From positions 9,860,001 to 9,924,000 of the forward strand of contig CM119371.1 in NCBI GenBank assembly GCA_051294905.1: a DNA stretch of 64,000 bases. Direction: 5' to 3'. A model generated the notes under the pieces. It searched no databases, was not told the DNA's origin, and saw only the letters and a program-made list of their open reading frames with translations. Origin of the DNA: Botryllus schlosseri (lineage: Eukaryota). Shown in pieces: positions 2,561-61,160 of the stretch. A program made the position numbers and the translations under genes. The number at the start of each line of letters is the position of its first letter. The stretch's first letter is position 1.

Positions 2561-2682
2561 AATAAAAGACAATAACACATCGCTATCTTGCTACGGACTA
2601 TGGACAACATTCAGCGAAAAAGGTGACTCAACTACGTATGCTATTTTCCTTGTTTCGGGCCGATACACTGTTGAGTTCTGAC

Positions 2683-3636: not shown

Positions 3637-5139
3637 GTTCTGACCAACACACTTGCAGGAAGTATCTCACAGTGCTTTGAAGCCATACCAGCTCTATTTC
3701 AATCACCTATAGCTCCCAGGCAGACCCACAGTGACCACACAACAATATCAATACCTGGTAGATAAATGGTAAGTGAATAAATTCATATTATAAATTTTTA
3801 TTGTTGCGGGTATTAAAAAACTATGTTTGCGATAAGTAGCCAAGACAATTAATAGGTCTGGCTGCTCCGTGTTCGATGAAAAATCAATTTGAGGGCACAT
3901 TTCGTGTTATATGCGATTCAAAAGAAAACAGTGAAACTCAATCTGTCTGTGCAGAATGATGTATAATTGGACATAGGTTGATTCGGTCTCAATTTTACTG
4001 GGAATCAGAATTGGGGAGTGAAGTAACTCAGATGACTGAGTTATGTTTACGGCGGCCTAAATCGAATGTACCTGCTGGATGTGGTCAGCGTTTGGACCAT
4101 CCATGGATATAATACTTTTTGATGTCAGTAATCATGCCGCAAAATGCATCCACGTACTTTCCATTGGATTAAAAACAATTAATCTTGAAAGTCATTGCCA
4201 GACATCATACTATAGTAATAGCGGGTGCAACATTGATATCACGCTCCGATTGATACCTGGTTGGCAGGTCCGCATCTCTCAAAGGTCGGTAATTTCTATG
4301 TTCCAAAAATGAACTAAAATAATTCAAAAATAAGCCGCCATCAAACTCATACGTTCAATTTATATGTTCGTTATAATCATTTGCATTTAATTTTCGTCTC
4401 CGCGACCATCAGGGAGAGGGAAAACGACCCTCTTGGATCGCGGCTCTCAGTTGGAAACCTTTGATATATAGCATATCTGCAGATCCTACTATCGCCTGAA
4501 AGTTGACGTAATTGATGGGAGAGTTCTCCAAGCTCTATAGCAGGGGTTGATAAGTATAGGTCCCGAAGCCTATATATTTGGGTCGTGGCCGCACTAGAGC
4601 GATCTTTTAATATGTATGTAATATTTTCCGAATTTTCGGCAATCAAAAAATTTATTTTCCCATCGCACGATCTTCGAGAGGATACTTTGTTCGTGGCCGT
4701 GTTCATTCATAAGCAGGAAGTGCAGAAAAACGGTCACTTCAATATGGTTTGATCATAAATGTGTGCGGACATTTGTATTGAAATAATTTTTTAATGTCAT
4801 GAGAAGATTTTTCTGACCTTGGCTTCTCTGGAAAGCTGTAACTTGCGTGGATAATACTCGGACATGGAAGAGGTAGATAGGGGCCATAGCTGCGGAACCA
4901 TAAAGTTTTTTTAATGCGCATAAGTTGCAGAAATGATTTTCTCCGTATATTCCTTATTGGAAAAGAACGGTAAATTCCTTATATCGCTTAACACTGTCGT
5001 AGACCATCTGGATGCTTTATTCAAGGGGGGGGGGGAAGGGATATGCTGCGGGTAGATAGGTAGATCATTTATTAAATTCGTCTCACCGGGTAAATTTGAA
5101 ACATTCAAATAATCGGTATGGACAGGAAACGGACGATAC

Positions 5140-6905: not shown

Positions 6906-9100
6906 CAGAGGTGGTCAAAGTAGTCAAGAGAAATACTCAAGTAGTAGTAACGACGTGAAAATGTACCTAGGTACGTGTAGAAGTAGTACTTTTAAATGCA
7001 TCCTAATACTTCTTGAAGAAGTATAATTTGACTGACTTAATATCTACTCAAGTAAGTAGATGTGAAAACGGTCGTAATTCGCTCGCGTGAACTGTCAAAA
7101 GCTGCATATTGATCTATGCGGAAGGTGTAGAGAGGTGTAAATGCATCCCAGGATGCATCAATTTTCGATAGATTAAGTATTCGTCCACGTCATGGGATGC
7201 AAATGATATTATCGATATGGAAATCCTTGGTTTTCTCGAACACCCCGTTTAAAAAAATCTCCTCCATATTATAAGGCCCGTAGTTTAGTCGAAAAGCAAT
7301 ATAGAGAAGCGTTATAAGATACGGTGTTAACACTTTTCACGATTAGTATGCGTTAGTAAAAAACTACGCCCGACCGTAAAATTGTCATATGGTGTACTTT
7401 TATTTTCAGAAAATACAGACACTACTACATCTACTTTTATACTTCAACATGTATGTTCTCCAGACAAAAGAACTGAAACTAAGTAGAACTCAAACTAGAT
7501 ACTGGGAATTGATAGAGAAATACAAATACTACTTCTGAACAGCGGAAAATATATTTCATGTCCCTTGTCCAGAATGATTCAATGGTTGTCTGCTAACACA
7601 GGTCTAACGTTTGAAAAAAGTCAGAATTTCCTTTTCCAGATTAGGACACGCCATGGGCTGCTAGATTACGATATTATATAGGTATAATTGCTAGATTGCG
7701 AAACGGTAGTTTCAAACGTCTTGATTGGCCATATTTATTGTAATGAAATATTTCATAGGGGCGACTATCCGGTGTGGACGGTACCACACAGCCCGCTACA
7801 AAAATTATGTTCATCGATACTTCCTTGAAAACAGTGTTGGGATGACTCGAGTCAGACTCGAGTCACCTTTTTCGCATGACTTGACTTGACTCGAGTCACT
7901 ATGCTAAAATGACTTGACTTGACTTGACTCGGCGTATCAGAAATGTGGATTGACTCGTGACTCGGAGCAAAATCCACGAGTCAATTTCAAGTCATCAAGT
8001 TATCGGTGTTGATAAAAATCACTGTATCTTGATTGTTCGTGAAACGCTTGCCTAACCCGTGAGAGCGACTAATCATTCAATGACCGTGCGTTTTACTGAG
8101 CCTCGATTGTTCTCTCACAAATAAATTGACCGCGCACGCAGTGATCGCAGCTTCCTGCTTACGTTGTCGTAACTCTAGTAGTAAAGTAATAGAATAGCAA
8201 AATGTCTATTTCTGTTCTCTGTTCTTACCTTAACCAAACCTCTTGTTTTATTGAAATTAAAGTCGAGTATAGTTTATATAGTCGTCAACCATTGGCGCAG
8301 GCTCGAATGGTATCATATCTATTTGTAAATGGGTAATGTATTGTATCTTATCAATTCCAATTCTCTATTCCCTATTTTTGCTGGTAACTATAAACTGAGG
8401 CTATGCAATTACGTAGTTTAATAGTTCTACGTATATGTGAGCGAAGCAGTGCCTTCTTGCGTGCATATTGAACTCTATATTCGTTCATCGTTTCGGAATC
8501 AATGACTACTCAAACTGTATTTCAGACAGCTAGCAAACTGCAATGACGTGATCATGCCTCATACATACTTCGAAAAGGCAACTTGACTTGAAATGTGACT
8601 TGACTCGTGACTTGACTTGACTTGACTCGACTTGACTCGAGTCACCTTCAAAAATCGAGTGACTTGACTTGACTCGAGTCACCTTTGAAAATCGATTGAC
8701 TTGACTTGACTCGAGTCAAAATGGGCAATGACTCGAAATGACTCGTGACTCGAAGGTAGTGACTTGATCCCAACACTGCTTGAAAACAAATTTGTCACTC
8801 CATATCTACTGTGAGCGAAGCGCGACGAAAATACTGAGCTTCACATAACTTTTATGGAAGGTAAATGTTTGTAGCCTACTCTGTGAAAACAGCCCCGAAA
8901 TTCCTCAGGCTATCTTTCTGATTGGAGGATTAAACTACTTCTCCTTGTCCAACTGAAAATAGCGAAAAGTAAGTATTTCACAAAACATTACGAAGTAAAA
9001 GTAGCGCGAAATAAGATTTACTTGAGTAAGTACCGCAAGTAGCGAACAACTACTACAGTATTTTTAAAAAGTAGAAGTACGTCGTTACTGACCGCCTCTG
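6906..9100. mobile_element. TIR element with AGTAG-rich subtermini hosting a nested MITE
   Basis: TIRs CAGAGGTGGTCA / TGACCGCCTCTG (11/12 match); no clean TSD. Confidence 0.6.
7832..8778. mobile_element. hAT-type MITE family B, copy 1
   Basis: TIR CAGTGTTGGGA; TSD CTTGAAAA; GACTT/GACTCGAGTC subterminal arrays. Confidence 0.93.
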
Positions 9101-10541: not shown

Positions 10542-10743
10542 CTGCTGTCTCCTCCTGCATTATTATTTCCATTATTAGCCTTTGATGCCAAAGGTATCGT
10601 AACCGCTAGTAGAATTGCAATTGCTAGCAATACGGCGCTCGCTCTCCAAACATTTTTCCAACTTCTCTTTTTTGGCTCTGGTGCAGTTGGTATATCGACA
10701 TTGGCGTACGAATGGTTTATACTTTGCTTCGGGTGTAGGCCAT
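10542..10743 (-). CDS. ITLN: Intelectin-like gene, coding exon 2: cytoplasmic tail, transmembrane helix and stalk (GLHPKQSINHSYANVDIPTAPEPKKRSWKNVWRASAVLLAIAILLAVTIPLASKANNGNNNAGGDS)
   Basis: Open frame between ttttcaaatccag acceptor and gtgaga donor, phase 1->2; basic cluster followed by a ~19-aa hydrophobic run. Confidence 0.7.
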
Positions 10744-12779: not shown

Positions 12780-13731
12780 CAGTGTTGGGATCAAGTCAGT
12801 ACCTTCTAGTCACGAGCCATTTCGAGTCGTTGCACATTTTGATTCGAGTCAAGTCAAGTCAATGGGTTCACGAAGGTGAATCGAGTCAAGTCAAGTCACT
12901 AGATTTTTAGAGGTGACTCGAGTCAAGTCGAGTCAAGTCAAGTCAAGTCACGAGCCAAGTCACAATTCAAGTCAAGTTGCCTTTTCGAAGTATGAGGCAT
13001 GATTACGTCATTACATTTAACTAGCTGTCTGAAATACAGATTGAGTGGTCATTGATTCTGAACCGATGAACGAATATAGCGTTGAATATACATCGAAGAA
13101 GGCGCTGTATCGCTCACATATACGTAAAACTCAGTTTATAGTTACCAGTCAAATTGGAGAATAGAGAATAGAGAAACGAATTGATAACATGCATAACATT
13201 ATCTGTTTACATATTAATATGATACAATTCATGCCTACGATAAGGGTTGAGGAGTATATAAAACTGTATTCGAATTCGAATTCGATAATTCGATAACAAG
13301 AGGTTTGGCTAAGGTAAGTACAGATAACAGTAATATATATTTTCCATAAATTACTTTACTACTAGTTTAGGACAACGTAAGCTGTAAGTTCCATTCATTT
13401 CTTTTGTGGTCAATTTATTTGTCAGGGTACAACGGAGACTCAGTAAAAAGCACGATCATGGAATGGCTGGTCGCTCTCACGGATTACACCAGCGTTTCGC
13501 GAACAATCCGAACATATGCAATATACAGTAAATTTTATCTGCACCTAGTACTTGATTGACTTGAAATTGACTCGTGGGTATTGTTCCGAGTCACGAGTCA
13601 ATTCACATTTTTGATACACCGAGTCAAGTCAAGTCATTTTAGCAAAGTGACTCGAGTCAAGTCAAGTCATACGAAAATGGTGACTGGAGTATGACTCGAG
13701 TCAAGTCATGACTCGAGTCTTCCCAACACTG
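12780..13731. mobile_element. hAT-type MITE family B, copy 2 (inverted relative to copy 1)
   Basis: Same TIR and body as 7832-8778 in reverse orientation; TSD not retained. Confidence 0.9.
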
Positions 13732-13794
13732 GTGATGCAAATGCATGTAACTCAAATTTAATATTGGGAACTTCTTTTAATGATGCGTGTTTCA

Positions 13795-20788: not shown

Positions 20789-21165
20789 TCAAGCTCGCCC
20801 TCTCTCCCATGCGTCCCTATCGTGGTCTCTACTGCCGACTTGTAGCACGGCTCGCTTTCCGTCTGGGCTTTTCAATGCACTACGGCAGTAGTGAGATCGG
20901 CGATGATGAGCCCAAACAAACCTCCGACCCATATAGAAGATGTTCATAACCGGTATTCGAATCCACTTCCATCGGTGTAGTGATCTTCCAGGTAGGTATT
21001 ATAGCTCAACCATAGTGCCCGAATTCAGTTAAGTCGACTGTATGCATTCTTCCATTACTTATTTTGAAAACGTAGAATAGCTGGGTCGGCCACTGCGTTG
21101 GCAACTATCACCAGGGATAGCACCGCGACGTTGGCGAGAACCAAATAAATTCGCACCGATGCCAA
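20789..21165 (-). pseudogene. Secreted prepropeptide paralog 2 (signal exon 21165-21059; exon 2 from 20984 or 20879 to stop at 20789); TTG occupies the start-codon position
   Basis: Signal exon (L)ASVRIYLVLANVAVLSLVIVANAVADPAILRFQN is homologous to 38541-38438; phase-2 intron; exon 2 contains SPDGKRAVLQV; minus-strand AATAAA at 20641-20646. Confidence 0.55.
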
Positions 21166-22230: not shown

Positions 22231-22766
22231 CTCTAGGGTGAAAGTGTCGACATACCACGTCTTTTAATTTGTTCAGCTACCTATTTATTAGCCACTTGGT
22301 GACGCTGCGGTTCAGAAGAAGTGAAGACAGACTAAACTGGAGCTTCTGCACTTCGATGTGAAAGTCGTCAAGAGGTGCTTAAATATGGCTCAGTTCCAAC
22401 TGAACGCATTGGTGCGACACGATGGAGAGTGCAATGTGTTACTTGTATGCTGCGATTGTCGGTACTCATGGTAGTTTCATGATAGAGCGCGATTTTGATG
22501 GGCTGCTAGTGTCTTGACTAGAATAACATTTCCGGAGTCAGAGTGACAGTAGCGTTCTTCTGTCACCAATTTCAATAAGTTAACAGCTCGGGTCGCAGTT
22601 AGCAGCAACTTCAGGCATTTAGTTATATCCTCGTACATACTTGAGGCGTCAAATTACTATATGCCTTGCAATATGTTGGTTTCATTCTCCCTCACAAACA
22701 ACATTACACACCATAAAAATATATTGGGGAACATGCTCATGCTGACATACGTATACGGGGACACAC

Positions 22767-23742
22767 CAGTGTTGGGATGACTCGAGTCATGACTTGACTC
22801 GAGTCGGACTCGAGTCACCTTTTTCGTATGACTTGACTTGACTCGAGTCGCTTTGCTAAAATGACTTGACTTGACTTGACTCGGCGTATCAGAAATGTAA
22901 ATGGACTCGTGACTCGGAGCAAAATTCACGAGTCAATTTCAAGTCATCAAGTAATCGGTGTCGATAAAAATCACTGTATTTTGCATATGGTCGGATTGTT
23001 TGCGAAACGCTGGTGTAACCCGTGATAGCGACCAATCATTCAATGATCGTGCGTTTTACTGAGCCTATACATTGTTTTCTCACAAATAAATTGACCACAA
23101 ACGAAGTGATCGAAGCTTACAGCTTACGTTATCGTAAACTAGTATAGTAAGGTAATGCAAAATGTCTATTTCTGATTTCTGTTCTTACCTTATCCAAACC
23201 TCTTGTTTTATTGAAATTGAACTCGAATATAGTTTATTTAGTCCTCCGCCATTGGCGCAGGCTCGAATTGGATCATATCAAATTGTAAATGGGTAATGTA
23301 TTGCATCTTATCAATTCGTTTCTTTATTCTCTATTTTGGCTGGTAACTATTAACTGATGCTATGCAATTACTTTCGTAGTTTAACAGTTCTACGTATATG
23401 TGTGTGATCCAGCGTTTTCATGCGTGTATATTTAACTATATATTCGCTCATCGGTTCAGAATCAATGACCACTCAATCTGTATTTCAGACAGATAGTAAA
23501 ATGCAATGATGTAATCATGCCTCATACTTCGAAAAGGCTACTTGACTTGAATTGTGACTTGACTCGTGACTTGACTTGACTTGACTTGACTCGACTTGAC
23601 TCGAGTCACCTCAAAAAATCGAGTGACTTGACTTGACTCGAGTCACCTTCGAAAATCGAATGACTTGACTTGACTCGAGTCAAAATGTGCAATGACTCGA
23701 AATGACTCGTGACTCGAAGGTAGTGACTTGATCCCAACACTG
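22767..23742. mobile_element. hAT-type MITE family B, copy 3
   Basis: TIR CAGTGTTGGGAT; perfect TSD GGACACAC. Confidence 0.93.
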
Positions 23743-23841: not shown

Positions 23842-24470
23842 ATGTATGTATGTATATTGGGGTTATGGTGCTTAGCAGCTATGGCCTTGTGCACCAGACC
23901 AAAGTGTTATAGGCATGTGTACTAGATTCTACTGCTACATTATAGTTGCCTCTCGGTGAAGAAAGCATAATAAATCACAAGCAAAATTGTGTAAGAGTCG
24001 CCGAGAAGTGACACAAAGTCTATTGGCACATGGTTTCGTAGTGCTATGTCCTTAAAATAGTTACGCTGTGAGCTATATCGAGAGCATTGTAACAAGAAAT
24101 GCCCAACCGTCTCTATAACGCCACATGCTGCACAAAGGCCATCGTCGTGACATTGAATTCTATGTAAGTGCCCGTTGAGTTTGCAATGCCCAGTCTGAAG
24201 CCGTAACAATATTGCTGTTTCCCTGTTTGATAGTCGCAGTGGCTGCGAGATATCACGTGCGGCGTGAATTCGCTTGTAGATATTTTCGGAATCATTCGTT
24301 TCAAATTCGCTTTTCCATCTTTCGTGAGTCAGTTCTTTGATAATTATTTTGGCCTCTTGTAGGAAGAGTGGGATGTCACTGGATGATCGTTGTGTTTGAA
24401 ACGTAGCCGCGTCCTTGGCGAGTTTATCGGCCATACCGTTGAATCCAATCCTGCAGTCACCTAGATATTT
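23842..24470 (-). mobile_element. I-group LINE 3' end (RNase H tail, CCHC zinc finger, 3' UTR, (TACA)n tail)
   Basis: Translation GFNGMADKLAKDAA ... LRLQTGHCKLNGHLHRI...CAACGVIETVGHFLLQC; stop at 23940. Confidence 0.85.
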
Positions 24471-24481
24471 GTGTTCTAGAT

Positions 24482-25762
24482 CACGGGTCGCCAACTCAAA
24501 ACGGGTCGCGGTCCACATTTCAAATTTCGTACAGGCCGCGGGCCGCATGAATTCAACATCGAGATAAAATAGGCCACACAGACTAACAACCAACTTTACA
24601 CCAGTACAACGCTGGGCACTATAACCTGGGCGTCGGGCATACTCTACACCAGGGCCGGCCAACCCGTGGCCCGCGGGCCACATGTGGCCCGCGAGAAGAT
24701 TTTGAGTGGCCCGCGAGGTAATTTCCGAAATTGGTAATATTATCAAAAATGGATTGCACAGATTGTGAACTTGCAAGTCAAACCAAAAAATTGAGATGTG
24801 ATGGCTAAAATATCAGTACCGACGGATTGGCAGATTCATGAGGCAGTCGCATTTTGGTAGATATTCGTACACTACAATAAAGCTGAATAATTTGCGATAG
24901 ATTTATCAAAAGTAAAAATTTTCTACACGCTCCGCGCGACATGTTGTCACTCAATTTCTTCCTCTTAATATTATTACCCCTTTGTGAAAATGAAAGAACG
25001 CCTAATGTATCAGATTGAGTCTAACGATATTCGCGATGACGAGATAAAGTGTCGTCCAACATATGCGACCATGTGTTTGCGCTCGCAGAAGGACCGTCAA
25101 CTATGAAACCTATAGGCACAAAAGGATTGATGCGCGTTGGTCAAAGCTTTCGATATCGATGTGTCCAGGCGCCGAGTGGTCCAGTCTTTGCGAGCTGAGC
25201 CCAGCGATATACAGCAGGCCCGCAATATAGTCAAGTGACAATACTATTGACCTATGAACTTCGCAAAATTTTCGCGCTTCGCGCGGCTAATGGCCTGCGC
25301 AATAGTTTGTTATTCGAATGTAACCCTTTGGCTGGAAAGGTTGGCCAGCCCTGGTCTACACAATAGAAATACTATCTTATTAAAGAAATACAAATACAAC
25401 AAAAATATCATTTTCATCAAGTTCATTTTATTGTTAACTATTAGCGGCGCACGATACCTTCTGAGCAGCGGCTAAAGAATCGATTTCGGGGTTAGCTAGA
25501 CACGGCAGTGTCTGGCTATTCCGCGTCAAGCCAATACGTCCATTCATATCAGTTAATGACTTGCTCCGTGAAATGGTATGAAAAATACTGAAGCTGTATC
25601 AGCTAGTGAGGAATAGTGATGTTGGACACTAGAAGATTGGTTATTTTAAACAGCAGTAACAATATCTCGAAAATGAAATAAATTACGGCATTTCAAAATG
25701 CGATAATTAACGTTCTGTTGAAATCTCAAATCATGCCGCGGGCCGCGTGTTAGTGACCCCTG
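24482..25762. mobile_element. hAT-Charlie-like element hosting a nested MITE
   Basis: Ends CACGGGTCGCCAAC / GTTAGTGACCCCTG; TSD TTCTAGAT/TTCCAGAT. Confidence 0.78.
24650..25353. mobile_element. hAT MITE family D, copy 1
   Basis: TIR CAGGGC(C/T)GGCCAACC; TSD CTCTACAC/GTCTACAC; second copy at 32534. Confidence 0.9.
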
Positions 25763-32533: not shown

Positions 32534-33234
32534 CAGGGCCGGCCAACCCGTGGCCCGCGAGGTAATTTCAAAATTTCTAATATCATCTAAAATGGATTGC
32601 ACAGATTGTGAACTTGCAAGGCCAACCAAAAATTTGATTAGTCAGGCCGCAACACTTGCGATGTGATGACCAGAATATCAGTTCCGACGCATAATTGACA
32701 AATCCATCAGCCATTCACATATTGGTATATCTTCGTTCACTACAATTACGCAGAATAATTTGCGATAGATCTATCCAAGGTAAAAAATTTCTACAAGCTT
32801 GGCGCAACACGTTGTCACTCGATTTCTTGTTTTTAATATTGTTGCCCGTTTGTGAAAATGGAAGAACACCTAATGTATCAGATTGAGTCTAACTATATTC
32901 GTGATTACGCGACACAGTGTCGTTCAACATATGCGACATTGCGTTTGCGCTCGCAGTAAGACCGTCGACTATGAAACCTTAGGCACGAAATGATTAACGC
33001 ATGTTGGTCGCAGCTTTTGATATCGATATGTCCATTGTCCAATGTCCATGCGCCGAATAGCCCAGTCCTCGCAAAGTTAGCCCAGCGATATACAACAGGC
33101 CCGCAATATAGTCAAGTGACAATACTATTGACATATAAACTTCAAAAGATTTTCGCGCTTGGCGCGACTAGTGGCCCGCGCAATAGTTCGTCAATCGAAT
33201 GTGGCCCTTTGGCTGAAAAGGTTGGCCAGCCCTG
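32534..33234. mobile_element. hAT MITE family D, copy 2
   Basis: Perfect TSD CCGTAATG; homologous to 24650-25353. Confidence 0.92.
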
Positions 33235-33657: not shown

Positions 33658-33675
33658 TAATTTATGGGGATTAAG

Positions 33676-34691
33676 TAGGGATGGTGTGCACGTGAGGTTC
33701 ACGTTCGCGTTCTGTATGTGAACCTCAGAAATTTAGAGGTTCACGTTCACAAACGAACCTCGGTAGGTTCTACACTGTGAACCTTTTATATATTACAATT
33801 TTCCACGTCCTTATAATATGTTTGGTTACAATTCATTGCATTTCAACTGCGAGTCACTCTATGCTCAACACTCTATGCATGGCGCTGGCAACATAAAAAA
33901 ATCAACACTAAACAAGCATGCACCTTGACAATCTCAAAACTTTTACTTGCTCTGTTACAAAAGTTTGCCCGAAATATCCATTTTTCAGTTTGTAAATATT
34001 TAGTGACCCTCTGCTGTGAGCTTGACCCGCAATCACACAATATGAAGAGCGAAATACGCTGCATGTAGGTATGGTCAGCGAATGATGCTTATTCAACCAA
34101 TCAATAAAATTGATATGGAGAATACATCGTTGTCGAATGTAAAAAAATTAGCAGGCGTACGGGGACCATCTTCATTTGTTATGTTTATTGTATCATACAA
34201 AAACAAATCCGTGTTATTGGGGTATTGGCTACTCTTGTATAACTTGTTAATGGGATAGTATCGGTAGCAGGTATAGAAACCCTTTCGATACTCTGCTCGA
34301 TATCAATGCATCAATACGCAGACGCCGAATACATATTCCGGTCTGGCCTGGACCGTTAAGGCGTAACCCTTGCAAGTCTTCGTCAAAATTGTTGGCAATG
34401 AGACGGAAGATATTGATTTCATAGGATTATCATATCATTTGATAACTCCAGTTGATATATTTGGCAACGTTTAAAAAGTCAGTATGTACTTCAGCATTGT
34501 GACATAATGTGGCCCGAGTCGTCCGTTGGTATTAGCGTGTTTTACACATCACTTCACCGAAATATAGGGTTGGAATTTACAATATGACACCACGTGACGT
34601 CATGAGGTTCACGTTCGCGTTCACACAGAATCTTTCAAAAAGGTTCGCGTTCACACGAACCTGAATCTTTCAGAGGTTCACACCATCCCTA
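33676..34691. mobile_element. hAT-type MITE family A, copy 2 (inverted relative to 2683)
   Basis: TIR TAGGGATGGTGTG; perfect TSD GGATTAAG. Confidence 0.92.
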
Positions 34692-35741
34692 GGATTAAGC
34701 CTGATACAGGCTTTGCGGCTCCTTCGCCGTGATGGGATAAGGACAAACTCATGCAATCGGGAGTGATGTGGAATTGATATCGGCGTAACCGTTTCCTCGC
34801 AAACCTAATGTTCCCATCAACGTCATGAAGGCATATCGATTTGATAAGGTATGATTTTTTATGTCTCAAAAATATGCGCGCATCGCGTGTTAATAAGGTT
34901 AATTTCAGACGAGACATCTCTGGCAAATTTGACACGGGATTCGTTGATGTGGTCCAAATCTCGACACAATCGTCATTTTGCTAAACAAGATAACGAGGTG
35001 TTGATACAATAACTTAGCAGACGCCGCGTTAACCCCTGGTCACGTGGGAGAAACGCATCGATTGGCGGGATGAAAGGGATGTGATCGAAACGTGATCGCA
35101 ACAGACTCTTATCAAATAAACAGACTGTCGATGTCGTCAGATTTCGTCTGTCGCTTGTGGCAGGCATTGTCGCCGTTTAACAAGGGAAATAAAGTATATA
35201 CATAATTTGCCCGATATGTTGACTATAAGGCTTTGTCCTGTGATCGATAAAAGTTTCATATATTTATCGGGGAAACCTATATATCTTTTGTCGTAGGTAT
35301 TATGAGGTGGAAAATTGCACTGGATGCGATTCTTATTTAATATCAATGTGACGTAGAACATATTCAGTGTGACCAGACGAGAACGAATGCAATCACAATG
35401 TCCAAGTTCGGGGTTTGGAGAGGTAATTGACGAATTTCCCCTCCTCTACCTACGCCACTGACTCCACAACATGGAGTACAAATCGACAATGCTGAGTCAT
35501 GTTCATGCTTGAACATATCCGCTGTTAATTACAGCACAGACTTTTTGCTTGAAGCATTTTGGATAACGCCTTACGATATATCTTTTCAGTCGACTTTCAC
35601 CATGGCGTATAGGTATTAACTATGAAGAAATGCAACAAAAGTGATTAATTAGTAATATTTATTTTTATTAGCATTAGCTGGCAAACTGACTAAACGCCAA
35701 GTAACAGCCTACAACGTCTTATAAATGTTACATGACACCTA

Positions 35742-35998
35742 TTTGTTTGTTTGCTATTCATGATATTTCGACTACATTGGTCATTTTTACACCAGGCCGA
35801 TACTCAATATTTCTATTCCGTATTTACCGACTTGCAGCTCGGCCCACTAATAAAATACCGCGGATCACGTGACAAGGAGGAGCATAGATAAACCTCCAAC
35901 ACTTGGGCAGTAATTCTGGAGTCGAACTCTGTCGGACTCGAACCCATAATCCATTGGTGTTGCAGCTGTGGATCATACACCTATAGGCTATCTCGCCA
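35742..35998 (-). mobile_element. tRNA-derived SINE, near full length
   Basis: Minus strand: GGCGAGATAGC head, B box GGTTCGAGTCC, (ACAA)n tail. Confidence 0.75.
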
Positions 35999-36794
35999 CA
36001 CTACACCGGTTACCACAAAGTTCTACGAGGATTCAGCATGGTTGAGTTTTCATGTCCTGGATATGATCGGTTATCTATGGGTCCAGCCAAAATAAACAAT
36101 CACATGACCTAGATATCTCTGGAACCATTACATGATGTTAACGGGTCGTCCTCTGTTCAGTTAGCTCACGTTAAAGTGCTCCAATTGCTCTGACATATAC
36201 TTCGCGATACGCAATAATCGCATAATCTTGATAGTCTCGAATCGCCAATACTAAATGCGCACGTCTCAGCGCCACTTACAGATCTGATATGCCTAAGCGG
36301 CGTAGCGCAGAAACCAGTACGAGAGTGGGCCGTGCTACTATAGTATACAGATTTGGAGTCATAATAAAGAAAATCGGGTTTGTGGCAAATGAATAATGTC
36401 GTCGAAACACCAAATATGCCAAAATAATAATAATAATATTAATAATAACAACAACAACAAGCAACATGTATAAAAATTCACAGCGTCAAACGCTACACGT
36501 CGTTACAAGATAGCTTAACTCCTTAAATCATGAAAATTCTCTGAAAATGGCCAAAGTTATCGCAAGATGTCCTGACAAGGTAAAGCTAAAAGATTCAGTT
36601 AAGTGATGAAACGATAAAATTTGATGCAAATGCTTTATTGAGAGTTTGCTGCTTTCCGTGGAGTTGAACGCATTCCGTTGTTGAATCACGTCCACGTTCG
36701 ATTTGATAATGGACCCGCCGGTTAGTCGGGAATACCTGATAACGGGATGATCACGGCGTGTTACATTCGGATAGTCGTAGATATCGCAGCATGT

Positions 36795-36879
36795 TTACCC
36801 ACCACGTTCGGCAATGATTTGATGGATGCCACGTTTTCGTCGTCCACCCCACCACGACTGAGGACTCCTTGATCCGTGA
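36795..36879 (-). CDS. Secreted prepropeptide paralog 1, exon 2 (SHGSRSPQSWWGGRRKRGIHQIIAERGG*)
   Basis: Strong ttttatcttgcag acceptor; phase 2 matches the signal exon; G-RRKR site; minus-strand AATAAA at 36634-36639. Confidence 0.55.
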
Positions 36880-37704
36880 CTGCAAGATAAAAACAATGCT
36901 TGAGACGTATAATTGGATATGAAAAAGAAATACCGCTGAATTCAACGCATGAATATTTTCGGATATGTATTTCTGGGAGGTAGACAGTCATATGTGTAAC
37001 AACTCGGGCTGGGCACATCGATAAGGGTATTCGTTTCTTAGTCGCATATATGTTCTATTGATATGTGTCGAGCAGTGTGAGTCAATTATTTCAAATACTG
37101 AATTTATCGGCGTCTTGGGACAAAGAATTATCGTATCAATAATTCCTTCACACCACAACATCCGAAACACGTTGATGGTTCAGAGGTATTTGTACATTCA
37201 TAATATCTACTTATCATTCAGGCAATCAGGAATCGGAACGTAGTCACAACGTGTTATGTCATATTTTCGGTGGACACATACTAAATGATTTGTGACCAAC
37301 TTGAAATAGAGATTTTATTTAGTTCAGCTTTTAAAATATTACAGATGCTTGTTACTATACTAGCTATCTTGATCAACGAGAAGCTTTATAATTCATTCGA
37401 AATCCAATTACTGAGGTATTCGATTTTACTCAACCCTGTTAAGAACTTATTTAATTGATAGCTCAATTAAATGACAAATGAAAGTTAAGATCATTCAGTG
37501 ATAAATACCGAATTGAATTATGTACATGAATGAGTTGTTCGTTCTGGATTAGGAGCAAGATTTGGGTTATGTTTTTTTCCAAATGCGTAAAATTTCGTCT
37601 ATCAGTCCTGATACTTAGGAAACAGAGTCAGAAACTGTCAAGACTGAGTAAAATCACTACATTATGAACTCGTACCATTATATATCACTCGAGCAGAGTT
37701 GAAA

Positions 37705-37918
37705 AAGGGGGTTAAACCACAAGGAACTGAAAACTGAACCGTGAACATAATGACTCGGACTCGAGTCATAACACCATGACTCGGACCCAACCCTCTACCC
37801 TCTTGAACTCGGACTTGACTCGGTGGTGAAGTGAAAATGTCTCGTTTCGGCTCGAGTCAAACATATAAAAGTGAGATGGACCTGTGACTCGGGACCTTGT
37901 GACTTGGTTAAAACCCTG
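37705..37918. mobile_element. Short degenerate MITE with GACTCGG repeats
   Basis: Ends GGGGTTAAACCA / TGGTTAAAACCCTG; GACTCG(G/A) repeats. Confidence 0.55.
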
Positions 37919-38437
37919 GTTATGCATTAAGTTTGAATTCAGAGCGGGGTTGAGTTTGTGGTTTGGAAAAAAGGCTACATGGGGTTAGGAATTAGGGATG
38001 GATGACTACTAGATTAGGTTAGGTTATGTTTGGGTTCATGGTTATCGCCTGGACTCATTTCATTCAAATAGAAATTTCAACATACATGCATACAAGTGAA
38101 TTTTCGTCGGTGTAATATTGTAACATATATTTTGCCAGGGCTAAAGACATATGTGGTATGCACAGAGCTCATAAAATAATGAGGTCCTAAAGGCACAATA
38201 ATAAAATGCATTGACGATGAAATTTGATTAGTTTTACAGTAAGACCAGTCAAGGTTTCAAGATATTCACTCACATTACTATTATGGGGCATGAAACGTAA
38301 AATTTATTTTTGCGCTTATGTAAGTTAGGACCGATTAACATTGAAACTGATTCATGCATAGCAGTAAAGGTGCCATGGAGTTTCAGACGTTATTAAAATG
38401 AAAGAGATCATCGTATGCTAAGTAATTTTTTAATTAC

Positions 38438-38541
38438 CTGGATTGTACCATCACTATAGGATAGGCAAGTGCTGTATCCATTATCACAAGAGATAGCACC
38501 GCTATCATGGCGATTAACCAATAAATTCTCGCCGGCGCCAT
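38438..38541 (-). CDS. Secreted prepropeptide paralog 1, signal-peptide exon (MAPARIYWLIAMIAVLSLVIMDTALA-YPIVMVQS)
   Basis: ATG, hydrophobic core and A-x-A cleavage motif; acceptor tttcgcag upstream, gtaatt donor; paralog at 21165. Confidence 0.7.
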
Positions 38542-40765
38542 CAAGTAATAAAAGATAGATCTGCGAAATTTTCGAGATAATAGTTAGATCAGGGAAGTAG
38601 TCTGCGAAAAATTCAAATAAGATTGAATGTGACGTAGCGTGATCGGAGACTCAGAGCACTAGTTTCGCATGAGCATCAGCAGATCGATAATTAGGACATG
38701 AAGTTATAGTGGCTAGACGGGATAGTCAACACGGTCATGACATTTATGGGTTCAGGTTCGTGGCTGCGCTCGACAATTCCTATCTGTGCAGAAGTTCTCG
38801 ACACATATTTGAAAGATATATGTGATGTAGATGTTGACTAGTACAAAGTACCGCGTTTACTGTCGAGAAATAAAGCCCGTTATTATAGTCATTGATAAAC
38901 TTGGATGTTCACATAATCACGGTAAATAGTTTTGATTCCACCTCACTATATTATTAGTCTGTAGCAATATATTTAATTCTAATCAATTCAACTATATATT
39001 GCGATTCATGTATATCAAGATCGTGCGATGAAAAGTAGGATGATGCGAACCCGCGAATCAAATCAAGTCACTTATATTTTTGAAGTGACGCGAGCTAGCT
39101 AAGTCAAGGCATTGTAGTTGTGCAAAGGATTTGTTGTACAAATTGAGTCGCCGTTGATTGAGATTCGAGAGGGAAATAAGGCGTAATGAGTTAATTGTTA
39201 CGAAAGGGCGGTGTATCGAACTGTTAAACTACATAGATAACAGTATAGCCCAAGTCTGTAATTACTATCGGTCAAAATTGGAATCCTCAGAAAGTTGAAA
39301 AACATTGGTATGATGCAATAGGTAATCCACGCACATAAGATATAACATACAAGCCTGATGAAATTTGACGATAATAATATAAAGGTATAAATTGTCGATG
39401 CTTGTGCAGCATTATTTATTCGATATTTTTTGTTTAGTGCGTATAATATCGGCTATGATAATAAGAAAATCAAAATTATATCAACATGATTACTTTTATT
39501 GGATGTATTTGCTGATTATGACGTTATTCCATAAACGATTGAGTTTCTCATGATAATTTGTGTTCTTTCAATCTGTTATTAATACATATTGATTGTAAAC
39601 GTTTATATCTTGTAGTCTTCGTCATTTCTTGTAATATTAAATGATTGCAGTGAATACTAAAAGTCATTCGCGTTGTGAACACCCAACACAAGGCGCCTCA
39701 TATTTCTATTCAAACTATGAATCACTTATCTAACCTTCCCATGGAATATAATATCAATTTTTGAGTGAATATGCTAGAGATCACGAATTCAGATGTCGGT
39801 CTGCTACTCGACTCTATCTGAATGCTACAATTGCAATTATTCAGTTCGGGCAATTCCCATTTAACTATCCCGCATGGATATAGAAGTAAAATGGCTGTTA
39901 AGAGAAATCTTCTGGCAATATTCTGGCATTGGCATCGTAAAAACAGCCCGACTTTAGCCGTCGAAATTAGAAGTGAATGAAACAGACAACATTTCAAGCA
40001 GCACAACCGCGCACGCACGAGAAGTAACTGCATTTAGTGAGCGATTAGCTTTCTTTTATCCCCTATGCGACACGATGTTTCGCACGCGACATGACACACA
40101 TTTTGACAAGACTTGTCATCTGACAAGCTATCTTCATGCGATGCGGTCCTTTGTATATATAAACCCTTAATTTTACATACTATCTGTATATCATACCCAT
40201 TTCTCAATTCTAAATTTGATATCGCAAAGTTTCAGTATCCGATATTGCACTGGATTAGTTAGATTACTAGCATTGCAGATTCACGAATACTAAAAACCAG
40301 TATTAGATATCCATATCTCGCATTTATATTGTCTGTGAATAAAATAATTTCATTTTTTCACCCTTTCAGACACTTCAAAATGTCATTTGCGCTATCAAAA
40401 TAAACACAAGCATCCATATCAACATATCTGGTTTGCGGGTGGTAATGAAATGGCGTTATTGGCATCTCATCGGAATATAATATTCTGAAAATATGTTAAT
40501 ATTGCGCATTACACCTTGAAATGGTTCCAACCGTGTTAGGGTAGTGCGAATAAAGTCGGGACTACACCAAGCACACGTCTGTTGGGTTGAATAAAATTGA
40601 CGCTTTGTCAGCGATTTGTCATCAAAAGCGGTACAGACGTGACAGATATCTGTGATTTTACGAGATAATATTTGATTACATGACTTGATGATGTTTCAAT
40701 CTCAAAAACTTTACAGATTTTGCAAATGATAGTAATGTAAAGAGTCTGTGTCTTGTGGTTGATAT

Positions 40766-41535
40766 CAGTGGTCCTGAACCGCTGGTCGGTGGCAAGCTTT
40801 CTGCCTGTCCGCCAAATATCAAAGAATTTGAAATGTCAATTCTAAAACGCAAGAGGTTAGATGCTTTTCTATTATTAGAGAAGTAAACATCGAATTTTAA
40901 GTTGATTTATAAGTTTGTGGCATATTTTCCTGCGTGGCGTCGTATAGTAGGGAGTTCATTGTCTACGTTGGGTGTATCGTGACAAATGGCACGAGTGCTG
41001 TGCGAAACAGTTTGAAACTAGCATACAACTAAAAATTTGGTTTAATGTATGTGAAAATTGGACTGAGATATAGGAAATCAGAAATCAAGTAACAGTCCGG
41101 CGGGTCATTCGGGAGTCGAGCCAGAAAGATGACTTATTTTTAGCAAACCTGCTACAAACTCGGAATACATTTACCAGTTTTTTCGGACTTTACTCCGGGA
41201 TTGTAAGTCTGAAAATTTTGAAAAAGTAGTCTCTTTTCCAATTCCCAAAATATTGTGACCCTACTATAGCTGACTGCTAAGTCTCATTTCCTTCAAGATG
41301 TCGAACAATCAAAAGGAAGTTAATGATCTTTAACGGGATATCGCGAGCATCGCCTTGCAAAAACGTCACGTATAAATATCTAATATCATAAAGGCAGCTG
41401 TAAATGAAGTTTACAATGCTACGTCTGAATTGCATGCATTTTCCGTAAATAAATTAAGGCTTTGTTTTGATTTTGAAGGTCCGCCGGTTCGCAATATTCA
41501 AGTTTTAATAGTCCAGGATGCCAAAAAGACCACTG
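40766..41535. mobile_element. hAT-Charlie-like element (family of 12674-14326, inverted)
   Basis: Ends CAGTGGTC / GACCACTG; internal similarity to the 12674 element. Confidence 0.65.
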
Positions 41536-41563
41536 GTATATATAGCATTTTCAGGACCTATAG

Positions 41564-41803
41564 GTTTGTTTGTTTGTGGTATTCATGGTGTTTGGCGACT
41601 ATATGGTCATTTACACCAGGCCAATATTGTTCATTATTTTCCGTAACTGCCGACTTATAGCACGGCCCACCTCTAGGCTTTTTGTAAGACACCGCTGACG
41701 TGGATGAAGTGGCGATCGAAGTAGCCTAGATAAACCTCCAACACTTAGGAACCCGCACCCATTGGTGTTGCAGCCGCGGATTATACCACTGCGCTACCAC
41801 TCC
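41564..41803 (-). mobile_element. tRNA-derived SINE
   Basis: Minus-strand A box TAGCGCAGTGG, TGCAACACCAATGG core, (ACAA)n tail. Confidence 0.72.
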
Positions 41804-43495
41804 ACACCTATAGCTGTGGCACACAAGGCTATTGCTGTTAAGCACCATAATCCCCACATTTATACCTCCGCTCATAGTATTTGAATCCTCAAGCTTCAGA
41901 AGAACATTACAATTACCTGCTATAACGCATTTCTGACAATGCGACAATTGCTTTGACATGCTGTTTAAAGGCAACTCTTGCAACCAACAATTATTATTAC
42001 ACTGTGCCAGCGGTAGTTGCCAAGAAAGCAAAACATTGAATGTAAGATATTGAATGAGTCTAATAATTCTTGAGGACATGTTTTCGGTTACTAACTCGTG
42101 ATTCGTGAACACCTTTTTATTACCCGATTCATGCTATACAATAACAATTCGACACAGATTTTATCTTAGCATGGGAATGTTTATATCGAGAATTGCTTAA
42201 CATTTTCAATCTAGATATCCAGCGCCAATCACTGCAAATATTCAGTGACTCATTTATGGCTCCCTACAGTTCGTAAACAACATATATCTTGGTGTAGCAC
42301 TATTGGCAAGCTATAAGATTGGCGTATGAGCTGAAACAGCTTACAGCAGTTGTCATTGTACCCATGCGCAGAAGGTCACTCGTGAATATATAGAATTACG
42401 GATTAGGCGTTGACTATAGCATGGTTTGTCGCGATGTGGAAAAGCGATGCAGAATGAAAAAGCTTTTAGTCATGGGTGCTTGCTTATCCTATTTGCTCGA
42501 AATTACTTGAGTCGTTGTGACGTTTCGTAATTCATATTCCATTTACATATTGTACCAGCAAATCAATTATATAATTAATCAGAATTGGCGTGACTCTTTA
42601 GCTTCAATCATGTGTCCCGCGCTGTAGAGATAAACCGTATCTTATATCGATAACAGATGACAGTATATATGCTTCATTCATGGAGCATATATTTCTGTCG
42701 GATCCTATCACAGCCACGACGCGCGTGCGAGCTATATCGTAACGTGATTATCTCCTACTATTCGTAGAATTACTATATTATTCTCGTCACTTTGACATGA
42801 TTTCTATCGGAATTGGGTAGAAATACTTTGCGTGTCACAGCTTTGCAATTGGACAAGTACAATAAATACGGAATCTTCCCGAAAAGCTTATCTCGACTAT
42901 GACCGGTGCCCGACACATAGTTAACTTAACTCACTGCTTTCATTTCTGAATATCGCGGTCAAAGCCATCGAAGCTTTCAGGATCAAGATGATTTGTTTGT
43001 TTTGTAGATATAGCGCACGGATATATGCTAATGTGGTCGATATGGCGCTCATATTGGGTAAAAGCATTTATATAATATAGCTTTCCGTCCCGATTATTAG
43101 CGCTTAAACGCACATTCGCGTGCGTTTCGCCTAGTTTTATTGGATAATTGGCAATATCGAATAGCTGAAACATTTTGGCATCGCTTTTCAAAGTTAAAAC
43201 GCCATTATTCGGCAATCAATCAGGCTGATACGAAAAATATAGAACACGACAGGTAGATTTCGGACATTTTTAATTGCAAAACGGAACGGAATATGACGAT
43301 CTGTGTCAATTTTGCAATATCCATTTAATGGCATAGTTTAATAAAAATATGAAAACGTTTGAGTCTTTCACTTAAATGTAGAATATAATAGTGTTTTTTC
43401 GCAAATGATCTGTTTCATTCGGCGCAAAAAGAATTGGGTTGCTGGCTCAAGTTTATCAAGCTCCACACTGATTCTCTGCTAAGGGCATATGTATA

Positions 43496-44034
43496 TAGGG
43501 TTGTATTTAAAACAAAAATCAATTAAAAACCCTTGTTTAAAACATGTTTTTTATTGTGTTTTTTGTTTGTTTCCAGTCATGAGGTCATGAATATTTAATT
43601 GTGACGTCACAGTATATTGGCATTGACAATTGAGAATATAGGGTAAATATGGCTACTTCGACGAGAAGGGCTTACGATCACTGTCATAAAGAGACCAAAA
43701 TTTTAACGTTATGCAGCATTTTTACGGTCGGCGGTCATCATCATCAGAACACCCATTCTGTACCAATGATCTATATCGACTTCCAAAAACTGTTGAACCA
43801 ACGACGATTTCAAGGGTTTCAGCCACTGCACATCGTAAACGTCGACTATTTTGTGTGCAAATCGTCCGCAGGCCCATACTACATGGTTTTTCGGACGTAT
43901 TTACACAATTATGGAATAAATGAACGTTCGACAAAAAAATTGTTTTGCTCAAAAAGGTATTTGTTTAAAACACTGTTTAAAACATGTTTTCAACAAAGTG
44001 TTTTAAAACACCGTATGTTTTAAATGCAACCCTA
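43496..44034. mobile_element. hAT-type MITE family C, copy 2
   Basis: TIR TAGGGTTG(T/C)ATTTAAAACA; TTTAAAACA repeats. Confidence 0.85.
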
Positions 44035-56565: not shown

Positions 56566-57518
56566 CAGTGCAGTGCAGAAATAAATTCAGCCTGTGTGTC
56601 TCTTTCTCAATAAATCACAAGCGACGAACGTAAAATGTGATCATTCTTCATCATTGGAAAATTATAATTTTTATATTAGAATAAAAAGAGTTTGAACGAA
56701 ATATTGAACAAGTATCGTAAAGTTTTTAATGAAATCGACAGAAGTTGTGCATTTAAAGACATTTTATACGATATTTTAGCGTCTTCAAAACACGCATTAT
56801 TTATGATAAAAACGACTTCGTTATCAAGATGTAATTACATGTCACGTATGCATATGAAAAGGAAATACTGACAGACTGAGCAGTTGTACCAGTGATGTAG
56901 CAATAACTGTCTGATCACAACACAATATCATTCTCAAATTCAACACAAACATTAGATAAAGTTTGTAAGTGAAAGGGTATCTTGACAAGAATGCAATTAT
57001 GATATTACAGCTTATTGGAAATACATGTATGGATTTTATACAAAGCATATTACACACTGGGGTGTCACGCAATGAATTGACTTCATAAGAGAAAACTGTC
57101 AAAAATTAACAATTTGAATTTTACCGGTTGTTGAAAACCTGCCATCGTCGAGTTATATACTGAACGATTGAGATCAGAAATACTTGACTGCAATTAATCC
57201 AAAATTCACCATATTGAACTGAATTGTTATGTATAGGTATTATTGATAGTATAATATGTTAGCTGAGTCAAGCAGCTGATTTGGAAAAAATACCTATCAG
57301 TAGGTATACATATGGAAATTCGTGATGGATTGTTATGTTCAGTCGACAAAGAGGTCGTCTTCTAAGCTCAACGGTACCAAACGCTCATCAAGCTCAACGG
57401 TACAACCTAGTAGCACGATTCATGATATGACCGACAAGGCCTCGATTCCAACCTCGGGTGGAAAATATATTTGGATCATTCCAAGGGACAGGGAAAGGTC
57501 AGTCATCGATATGATTAT

Positions 57519-57707
57519 TTATGTGTATTCGAAGGCTTTGTTAACATGAGTCTTTCCCTCGGTTGCATCTTTTCCTGTGGTTGATTGTGAATCCTCGTCC
57601 GTTTCACATTTCTTTTCGCTTTCTCCGTCCAGTTCGATACTTGAATTGTCTCTTGGAGGAGACTTGTACGTTAACAGAGCTATCAGCAACGATGTGATCG
57701 ATATAAT
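57519..57707 (-). CDS. SLCO: OATP/SLCO transporter, terminal exon (end of TM12 and acidic tail)
   Basis: IISITSLLIALLTYKSPP...NKAFEYT*; cag acceptor, phase 0. Confidence 0.75.
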   Translation of the reverse strand: MISITSLLIALLTYKSPPRDNSSIELDGESEKKCETDEDSQSTTGKDATEGKTHVNKAFEYT

Positions 57708-58322
57708 CTGTCGTATTAAGGCAAGGTAAGAGTGACATAAATTGATAAATTTCAGACGATGAAAGTTATCTAAACCTAAATCCACGTTCATTAAGTAGTA
57801 GTGTACCCTGTACAGTACATTTTAGACGAGAATATAGCTACGGGAACAATAATACAAAGCAGTAGTATATTGCCTTACTGTAAGCTCTATGCTAAGGAGA
57901 TGCGATCGACACATAAAAATGATATGATACACATTTCTTTGTCTGGGATAACTAACCGACGACGATTAGGACCACGTTTAAAACGTCACAGGCCTGATAA
58001 CGCTAATCAGTAGCCAATTTTAATCCAAGATACGATTACGATTCAGAATATGCACTTTTTCCAGCATATCAGGTTCACGACATGTCTTAATATTAAAGCT
58101 TCAATGTTGTGTTACTATGTTCTATTCCTTTTATGATCATTGGGCGGCGTTATATAATTCAATGTTGACGTAATTCATGACGCATCCATTTTGGGTCTAA
58201 CTACGATGGCTGATAAGGAAAATATAGCTAGGAGGCTTCGCCTACATTTTGGAAAATTGATTGGTATTTCGAGCATTCAATTCCAGATGTAGATAGTGCT
58301 TCGGTGCTGAGTGTGTACTGTG

Positions 58323-60279
58323 CAGGGCATGGTATGGTATGGTATGGTATGGAATGGGAATATTCCATACTCCATACCCGCCCAATTGTTCCATACCATA
58401 CTTGACAATTTTCCATAACTTAGGTTATGATACTTTTTCCATACTTTCGCAACTTGACCAACCTCTCAAGTGATATTCTATTTTTGATGTGTGGAAATGT
58501 TCCGGCGTATATATTCTAATTATTTTGGATGAGAATATCCATTTAAACGGCCCTGATGCAACAATGATATCCCCAGTTTATTTATATCATAAGTAGTCAG
58601 CGATGTAGGAACTTATAATGTAGGCCTATACACATGGGATTATTTGGAAATCACAACAGAATCTCAAGGCATGTAAATCTAGTGTGGTAACGCACTGCTA
58701 ACATAACCTAATATACAGAAACACATAATACAAAGGTATTGCCAAATTATAGGATTGGTTCCGAACCTTCGTACACTTTAAATTTGTTCCTCCAATAAAA
58801 TTTCTTAAGATTTTCTTTTGTAAATACTTGCTATTGGTGAAAGTTAAGACCCCCGCAGAACGGAACAGCACGCAATAAAATTAATGATTACGCAACTGGT
58901 AACCGTACACACAATTTTGTGCCTCCGTAAAATGGATATAGGTGAGGTAAGGCGACAGAAAAATAGGAAGGATTTGAAATTTTTCCAGATGTACCAAGGA
59001 GCATCAATTTACATGTGTAAATGCCGAATATATTGCATGGGTCAGATAAACTTCCTGTTGTTGACGAACTTATGCGTATGGTGCCACCATAACCTACACT
59101 GTCGCACGCTACTATAATTCGAGTAGTAAGAAATATATGTCATTTCATCAGTAATGAGTCCGGCTATGCTATCAATTAGCGATTCTACAATCTTCCGTGA
59201 GTACATATTCTTATACATATGAACTTTTATTTTAACGAATCGGGTGATTTCAATCACACCTCACATCATTTAGCATACGAATGAATAACAACCTATATGA
59301 GGGAAATCGCGTGCCGCTGTCCAATCGATTATCGCTAATTGGAGGCACTGATAATACGAATTGCTGAATTGCAATCGGCATTTCATACAGACGTCTAATA
59401 AACGAAGTTAAAATTGTAAAGAATTTGTTTTCCAAGTGAGTCTATTCCCAACCAGAAGGCCCTAAATTCCCCACAATTGGGGTATTCACCATCGGTTGGA
59501 AACACCTGCATTGAGATATACCTTTCAATAATTTTTACATCACCACAATCATTTTGCGACAGGTAATCAAATGTCTATTTCCTCCGCCAATCTGTGGGTC
59601 ACACTCGTTAGCTTCATCAGCCAACATCAAGGTGCCCTCTGTCCATTATATCAGAAATCAACAGTTTTCATGAAGTTACAATGCGTGTTGTAGGCCAGCA
59701 TATCGTAATGTCGCTTCAAAAAAAACTACATATTTTTGAATTACAATGATGATTCTGTCAAATAGATATTGTGTGATGATCATATTCCCAAAGTGCAGGT
59801 AATTATTTCCAAGTTCAACAAATTGATAATAATATTGATGTAACTTCTACTTTGGTTATTTACGTAGTGGAAGTTACGATAAGCGAAATGCAATTGTAAC
59901 GCGAAAATGGTCGAATATCATTCATTTTTATGATATTTAAATCGGAATAATCATCAATAATATTATTTTCATTCATATGCCCGACGCAAAACTTTGTTGC
60001 CTTCAAATTGATGCCCACCGTAATGGTTGAGTCATGAATCACAATTTGAGATATGAACATAGACAGTGAGCGATGTTATGTGGTATTCAATCAATTTGAC
60101 AAATCGAAAGTAGGACTATTGTCATGGTTCTGGCAAAACTGTCTAAGTATGGAAAAAGTATGGAAGTATGGAAAACACATTCCATACCAGACTTGGGAAA
60201 TTTCCATGCCATACCATACTTGCACTCTTCCATATTCCATACCGAAATTTCATTCCATACCATACCATACCATGCCCTG
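58323..60279. mobile_element. hAT MITE with (CCATA)n subtermini in the last SLCO intron
   Basis: TIR CAGGGCATGGTATGGTATGG; perfect TSD GTACTGTG. Confidence 0.92.
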
Positions 60280-60412
60280 GTACTGTGTATGCTGTATGAA
60301 CAGATAACATATATAATCTTCAATAACTAATACGAAATCATTAGAGACACTAATTCAAGATAGTATCTTAGTTAATGATATTGGTGTCATTATAAAGTAC
60401 AGTCTCTCCTAC

Positions 60413-60583
60413 CTTCGCACATACGAGCAGGATGGTGAAAGAATTCGACATGATACGGTTGTCGTACAGACGACAGGACGCGCACTTTCCGCACACCTCT
60501 TCCCATACTATACAGGATGCATCGAGTAGTGCGCCGAGAATCAGTGGAAGCGGTATCAATCCGAGACAGCGCATGATCACCCA
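60413..60583 (-). CDS. SLCO: OATP/SLCO exon (WVIMRCLGLIPLPLILGALLDASCIVWEEVCGKCASCRLYDN...)
   Basis: OATP TM11 motif R-x-LGxIPxPxxxGxxxDxxCxxWxxxCGxxxxCxxYD; ag/gt bounded; 171 nt. Confidence 0.92.
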
Positions 60584-61036
60584 CTGAAATTCAGAGGAGG
60601 TTGAAATAGTCAGCGTTGCTACTAAGTACAAGTACTGGTACTCAGTATAAGTACAAATACAAACATCTCCATCCAAGACATACAAAAACAACATCTAGTC
60701 AACACGTTACGAAGATAATCCACTCGATTGCAGTGACCGTTTCACTATTACATGTGATGCAAACGTATCCCAAAACGACTTTTTGAGTACATAAAGTCAA
60801 GAGTGTGAAAAATAAGTAGTTCTGATGCAAACGACATGGGAAGTAGACGCAAAAGTAGTCTTAAAGCATATCCACTTAAGTATTGCCAGTATGCAAAACC
60901 TACTTGAGTAGTACGAGAATTTACAATTTACAATTACTCTTGATAGAACAAAAACGAAATCAAAATTTTTGATGATCGAAAGAGCAATTTCATCATGGGG
61001 TAAGATTACGGATGTCAAGCATAATAGCGTGATTAC

Positions 61037-61090
61037 CTGTATTCCAATGGCAAAGGACCTTTGATGCAACGGCACTGTTCTCAGTGAAAC
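61037..61090 (-). CDS. SLCO: OATP/SLCO exon (VSLRTVPLHQRSFAIGIQ)
   Basis: LRxVxxxQRSFAxGIQ motif; 54 nt, phase 0. Confidence 0.9.
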
Positions 61091-61160
61091 CTATTACAAA
61101 ATACACATACATTATATGCATGGCATAGTTGAAGCGGCCATCAAAATATATTCAGCTTAC

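Follow-up and report, generated by a model that had tools for sequence, protein, structure and literature searches.

Structure and expression of the gene

The reverse strand of the window (the whole 64,000-nt stretch of Botryllus schlosseri DNA analysed here) carries a real, expressed and spliced gene of three exons, which is spliced-leader (SL) trans-spliced and encodes a 64-aa precursor. Judged on its sequence, the product has the layout of a peptide-hormone precursor and falls outside every family tested. The best explanation, on which our confidence is evenly divided, is a lineage-restricted ascidian propeptide that would be cut at an RRKR site to give a convertase-processed signalling peptide.

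The signal exon of the original prediction is present as described: an ATG at 38541 (-) opens a coding part of 104 nt (38438..38541, -; codons 1-26 at 38541-38464), defined by the sequence and an RNA joint and closing on a phase-2 GT donor at 38437. Intron 1 (36880..38437, -; 1558 nt, GT..AG, phase 2) separates it from exon 2 (36803..36879, -; 77 nt, with RNA joints on both sides), where the expected acceptor before 36879 is found and Gly-RRKR lies in frame at 36845-36831. RNA evidence was drawn from four of the 24 runs listed, aligned on window positions 34700-43700 with 3-13% of each raw run read; within the run listing, 14 of the 24 rows match part of the stretch. The predicted junction 38438/36879 is crossed by 18 reads of run X17 (14 + 4, from 14 start places) and by one contig of run X2.

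A second intron (36736..36802, -; 67 nt, GT..AG) is documented by 14 X17 reads (7 + 7, 12 starts) and one X2 contig. Its placement admits four equivalent cuts, and since GT..AG is obtained only for 36802-36736, the donor is 36802 and not 36798, four bases upstream of the one first proposed. The TAA stop assigned earlier to a 62-aa precursor sits inside this intron and is therefore removed, as the joint reads show; the frame resumes in exon 3 at 36735 and terminates at 36724-36722 (coding part of exon 3, 36722..36735, -; 14 nt with the stop, from the sequence), giving 64 aa with the C-terminus G-I-P-D. What holds of the 62-aa model is a small secreted precursor with a convertase consensus; its length and C-terminus give way to the RNA-based, three-exon form of 64 aa. 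For a product of 62 aa, intron 2 would have to be retained, and the share of joint reads in the flanking depth, alike at both introns (18/~33 at intron 1, 14/~24 at intron 2), suggests that intron 2 is normally spliced out. No joint in the RNA reads corresponds to the longer alternative, a 130-aa form extended from donor 36798. The 88-codon open frame downstream of the earlier stop was also rejected; its start lies within intron 2, and the precursor uses a different frame of exon 3. Neither a lack of spliced transcript nor an unused RRKR frame, the two outcomes that could have spoken against the gene, was observed, and the RNA joints support the spliced frame that contains RRKR.

At the 5' end, a trans-splice acceptor AG (38561..38562, -) lies 19 nt 5' of the ATG, and 26 X17 reads have a non-genomic 5' end at 38562. 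These ends equal the 25-nt 'Chordata 1' leader of PMC3795323 if the genome is taken to supply its final AG; among the supplement rows of that source, the leader is given for Botryllus, Halocynthia, Boltenia, Herdmania and Polyandrocarpa. A 25-nt leader at an unpaired AG acceptor is what is expected of an SL trans-spliced stolidobranch mRNA. In the sequence of the modelled mRNA, the 19-nt 5' UTR (38542..38560, -) holds no upstream ATG. A TATA-like element at 38708-38703 (-) recurs at 21285-21280 (-), next to a paralogous signal exon described below, with a shared context of AGCCAC then CTATAACT; it lies 120-170 nt 5' of both signal exons and may mark a promoter ahead of the outron.

The AATAAA that had been taken as the polyadenylation signal is present at 36639, and X17 reads run past it, so that it is not the main end in this run: 25 reads span 36548, and there are still 10-11 at 36304 and 36279. 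The 3' UTR (35645..36721, -) is seen to at least 36279. Because cover, from X17 only, is found at 36279 and 35674, while depth is ~0.3 in the bin 35302-35602 and near zero below 35602, the tandem AATAAA at 35669 and 35663 is probably the transcript end, after which we place the limit of the UTR; a repeat at about 35744-35999 blurs the middle. The UTR also contains a 63-codon ATG frame (window 36467-36276, -), with a hydrophobic start made by GTT/ATT microsatellites, which is probably untranslated.

Expression is modest and restricted, as shown by runs of which 3-13% of the raw reads were sampled. Of the 12.9 million records of X17, ~92 read-equivalents fall on four bins of the gene, roughly ~7 per million or an RPKM near 10; in X21 these bins have zero depth, and in X15, a single-cell run, the depth is no more than 0.42.

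Coding status, signal peptide and a deletion allele

The gene is almost certainly coding, and its product is very probably secreted. Counting from the leader, the ATG at 38541 comes first, and the mRNA, as modelled to 36250, has no longer frame than the one it starts. Residues 1-26 form a predicted signal peptide: the n-region is basic, the hydrophobic core has 14 residues, and A-L-A stands ahead of Tyr-Pro. The prediction was made by a hydrophobicity scan and the cleavage site placed by the -3/-1 rule; of the 17 hydrophobic stretches in the window that an ATG leads, only a microsatellite frame scores higher than this one, at 3.17. The part after the signal has 38 residues, no Cys, a net charge of +4 and a pI of 11.4.

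At least two indels fall inside the transcript among those listed, a coding one of 3 nt and a UTR one of 1 nt. The coding one is an in-frame 3-nt deletion allele just before Gly-RRKR (36854..36856, -), carried by 18 of 33 X17 reads; the residue lost is most likely Ser43, or one Trp if the reported position is off by one. This allele shows a change compatible with a coding frame, yet it also marks the residue ahead of WWG as dispensable, a hint that the putative amidated peptide is only loosely constrained.

A paralogous signal exon

One paralogous signal-peptide exon was found within the 64-kb window (21059..21165, -), with the same phase-2 GT donor and TTG in place of ATG. Its alignment with the signal exon scores 69, the maximum in 200 shuffles being 36, and although 22 of 75 nt differ, the signal-peptide character is kept. 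Under random mutation, a signal peptide was retained in 1.1-1.7% of 20000 runs per direction, by criteria chosen by the analyst; amino-acid identity alone was without significance in the same test (13-22% of runs). The DNA 3' of the paralogous exon has no similarity to exons 2-3, and from its sequence the exon is probably a pseudogene or a null allele.

The 330 nt after the paralogue donor (21058-20731, -) look like decayed coding sequence, with a 69-codon Trp/His/Arg-rich frame at 20998-20789 and a 46-codon acidic frame at 20871-20731; together these loosely recall cationic-then-anionic precursors of antimicrobial peptides (AMPs), a likeness for which database searches gave no support. Farther along, at window 15324-15247 (-), an acceptor much like that of exon 2 (TTTCTTGCAG) leads, in phase 2, into a basic frame of 25 codons. 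Either the acceptor at 15324 or the 69-codon frame at 20998-20789 may be offered, as a guess, for the second exon of the paralogue.

Predicted processing at RRKR

R-X-K/R-R is the consensus of furin and the prohormone convertases (PC). The basic residues are then taken off by carboxypeptidase, and a Gly that becomes exposed is converted by PAM to an amide; Gly followed by clustered basic residues is the classical signal for amidation. The sequence Gly47-Arg-Arg-Lys-Arg51 (36831..36845, -) places this convertase consensus at residues 48-51 of the spliced frame, in the middle of the propeptide, behind a possible amide-donor Gly. The processing site of the original prediction is thus retained as a furin/PC consensus in a secreted spliced frame, and amidation is kept as a predicted signal. 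Stop-free 38-residue stretches of the window, taken in all six frames, contain R-X-[KR]-R in 24 of 978 cases and the same motif with a preceding Gly in 2 of 978, one of which may be the gene itself.

The predicted products of a cut at RRKR are residues 27-46 (net +1) and residues 52-64 (net -1), RRKR itself accounting for four of the six Lys/Arg in the post-signal region. In the proposed pathway, removal of the signal peptide (residues 1-26) would likely release the 38-residue, Cys-free propeptide into the secretory pathway, and furin or a prohormone convertase could then, with moderate confidence, cut after RRKR. Carboxypeptidase trimming and the action of PAM on Gly47, a weaker step, might leave a 20-mer ending WWG-amide beside a 13-mer (52-64), and the 20-mer or the 13-mer would act through a receptor as a local or neuroendocrine signal. 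Taken separately, cleavage at RRKR is probable on the sequence, amidation somewhat doubtful, and a role in signalling evenly balanced. A shorter ...SPQSWWG-amide, as once suggested, would call for an extra cut at the lone Arg39 before Ser-Pro, and nothing supports such a cut.

Relatives and known peptide systems

Protein, structure, metagenome and text searches returned no credible homologue; the protein queries were single exons (24-44 residues) padded with flanking in-frame sequence, and at their low sensitivity the absence is weak evidence. Neither the exon 1 nor the exon 2 query gave a candidate among proteins of 24-77 aa, and a two-row alignment of the signal exon gave 0 of 250 candidates at E<=1 among proteins of 78-2000 aa. 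The sole HMMER match among representatives (P0003) is a 1762-aa tandem-repeat protein without RRKR, whose matches of 8-9 identities in 17-23 residues each are summed over ten repeats and were set aside as an artefact. Pfam has no family match for the precursor exons; PDB sequences and the ESM Atlas held nothing usable (best score in the latter 0.77, a lead only); 0 of 137 pattern matches of a metagenome scan were confirmed and a second scan had 0 matches. The precursor motif strings matched none of the main texts searched, and a topic search retrieved no title or abstract start on this peptide. Nor did these searches yield an orthologue in which RRKR, the Gly or either peptide might be compared.

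Two likenesses to classical hormones were considered and rejected. The insulin/relaxin family has six conserved cysteines and an A chain that starts Gly-Ile after a basic site; the present precursor has no Cys after its signal peptide and no Pfam match. Bilaterian amidated peptide-hormone precursors of NPY-type architecture likewise have Tyr-Pro directly behind the signal peptide, then a Gly-basic site and a flanking peptide at the C-terminus; the length and C-terminus of the predicted amide differ (20 against 36 residues, with no RxRY/F-amide), and the Pfam search produced no hormone match. We found no link from this precursor to any vertebrate family or known process.

Among ascidians, peptide repertoires are known chiefly from Ciona, and homology search misses small precursors (PMC8936170, in its accessible part). 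Ciona possesses non-homologous neuropeptides of this elusive kind, and some Ciona-specific peptides act on orphan-type GPCRs (accessible parts of PMC8936170 and PMC6475428). The precursors of CiNTLP, CiLF and CiYFV/L resemble the present gene in being ascidian genes missed by homology search; in the six supplement rows compared, the Ciona neuropeptides show no sequence likeness to the predicted products. The Ciona peptides are short ones, discovered in the neural complex through mass spectrometry, whereas the gene described here has one tetrabasic site and is known from sequence and RNA.

The signalling reading is supported because the RNA joints and leader, the first and longest ATG frame, the signal score and the rare Gly + R-X-[KR]-R motif agree with it, because the paralogous exon stays a signal peptide and the coding indel is of 3 nt where the UTR indel is of 1 nt, and because expression is modest and restricted and Ciona offers the precedent just given. 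It is weakened because the searches gave no orthologue, because a common allele deletes a residue and the one paralogue found is without ATG, and because neither product resembles the compared Ciona peptides or any Pfam family. A bolder version would make the gene the founder of an undescribed stolidobranch peptide family, with a conserved signal exon and exchangeable mature-peptide exons, and its 20-mer or 13-mer the ligand of an orphan tunicate peptide GPCR outside the Ciona repertoire; we regard this as fairly improbable. An ascidian genome can be expected to hold orphan secreted peptides, and one more overturns nothing; the RNA-verified stolidobranch precursor does provide two defined, cheaply synthesised peptides for receptor or antimicrobial assays.

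Alternative explanations

A Trp/Arg-rich defence peptide is the rival that survives best, and we hold it to be unlikely; the secreted 38-mer, or a cationic core around WWGGRRKR, would hit microbial membranes. A family of this type would keep a shared signal exon and vary the remainder, as ascidian and frog AMP families do, and the paralogue, with its common signal exon and dissimilar 3' DNA, has that appearance. In the accessible part of PMC7387483, a Ciona peptide of 14 residues, rich in Trp/Arg and of charge +4, was validated, and signal peptides are reported as conserved within families. The linear cationic Ciona AMPs treated there (Ci-MAM, Ci-PAP, KH.C1.640) are likewise 50-100 aa long, secreted and Cys-free with a nominally cationic window, likewise share a signal peptide with a paralogue and, in KH.C1.640, have a Trp beside an Arg cluster. 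The precursor thus shows the length, signal peptide and absence of Cys used as AMP criteria in that source, and the charge and pI of its post-signal region are what a cationic peptide would have; it has no anionic C-terminal proregion, a typical though not universal feature (present in 17 of 22 Ciona candidates, but in 0 of 21 windows here).

Our re-implementation of the cationic filter of PMC7387483 is passed by 13 of the 21 18-residue windows, but it does not discriminate, as background Cys-free 38-mers pass in 131 of 258 cases. These windows contain 3-5 Gly/Pro, which argues against a helix, and reach a moment of at most 0.26; in its poor helix propensity the precursor stands apart from the Ciona AMPs. 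Its signal peptide, compared by eye, is unlike both Ciona AMP consensuses published in the same source, where basic processing motifs are reported as not found at the boundaries of the Ciona AMPs; this precursor has RRKR. Furin has been reported in morula-cell granules of Botryllus (PMC9966394, accessible part), which would suit a defence peptide, but a cut at RRKR would strip most of the charge and leave products of net +1 and -1. Low, restricted expression also seems atypical of granule AMPs, although the tissues of the runs are not given.

Closer to Botryllus in taxonomy, the stolidobranch haemocyte AMPs (styelins, clavanins and botryllin; accessible parts of PMC9966394 and PMC10608444) belong to the same order and share the prepropeptide layout, and styelins and clavanins have amidated C-termini. 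Botryllin has a 158-aa precursor with a 37-aa mature peptide of charge +11 and a KHK motif (same sources); the present precursor, in a comparison that leaves the signal peptides aside, has 64 aa and no acidic tail, and KHK, which in the styelin/botryllin group marks a strongly cationic mature peptide of 31-37 aa, is absent from the 64-aa frame.

We consider it quite improbable that the product is a secreted microprotein of non-signalling function (a component of tunic, egg coat, adhesive or mucus), or that it comes from a young orphan gene under drift in which RRKR is incidental. Such a product would accord with the lack of relatives in any search, the tolerated indel allele, the lost start of the paralogue and the occurrence of R-X-[KR]-R alone at the random frequency given above, but the full furin consensus after Gly in mid-propeptide and the purifying selection shown by comparison of the signal exon with its paralogue tell against it.

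A spliced non-coding RNA with an untranslated short frame would explain a mere 64 codons, a 3' UTR of 0.45-1.1 kb and the want of a homologue, but it is highly improbable given a first ATG 19 nt past the spliced leader with a canonical signal peptide next, a paralogue that keeps the signal character and a coding indel that is in frame.

Genomic surroundings

A neighbouring gene on the same strand has a fibrinogen-domain (intelectin-like) exon at 1245-1532 (-), identified by Pfam, and an upstream exon at about 10550-10700 (-), in which a basic stretch precedes a long hydrophobic segment. On the sequence, we rejected the paralogous signal exon as the first exon of this intelectin gene, since the exon near 10.6 kb already gives that gene a hydrophobic segment. 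On the other side of the precursor gene, 57500-61100 (-) holds exons of an OATP/SLCO transporter (Pfam OATP, E 1.9e-14).

Self-comparison reveals three dispersed repeat families of 0.7-1 kb with 75-88% identity within the window, at 7843-8778, 12780-13734 and 22764-23742; at 24706-25353 and 32550-33234; and at 2682-3639 and 33673-34692. A 290-codon frame at 23940-24812 resembles the decayed end of a non-LTR retroelement, with a weak zf-RVT match (E 0.029).
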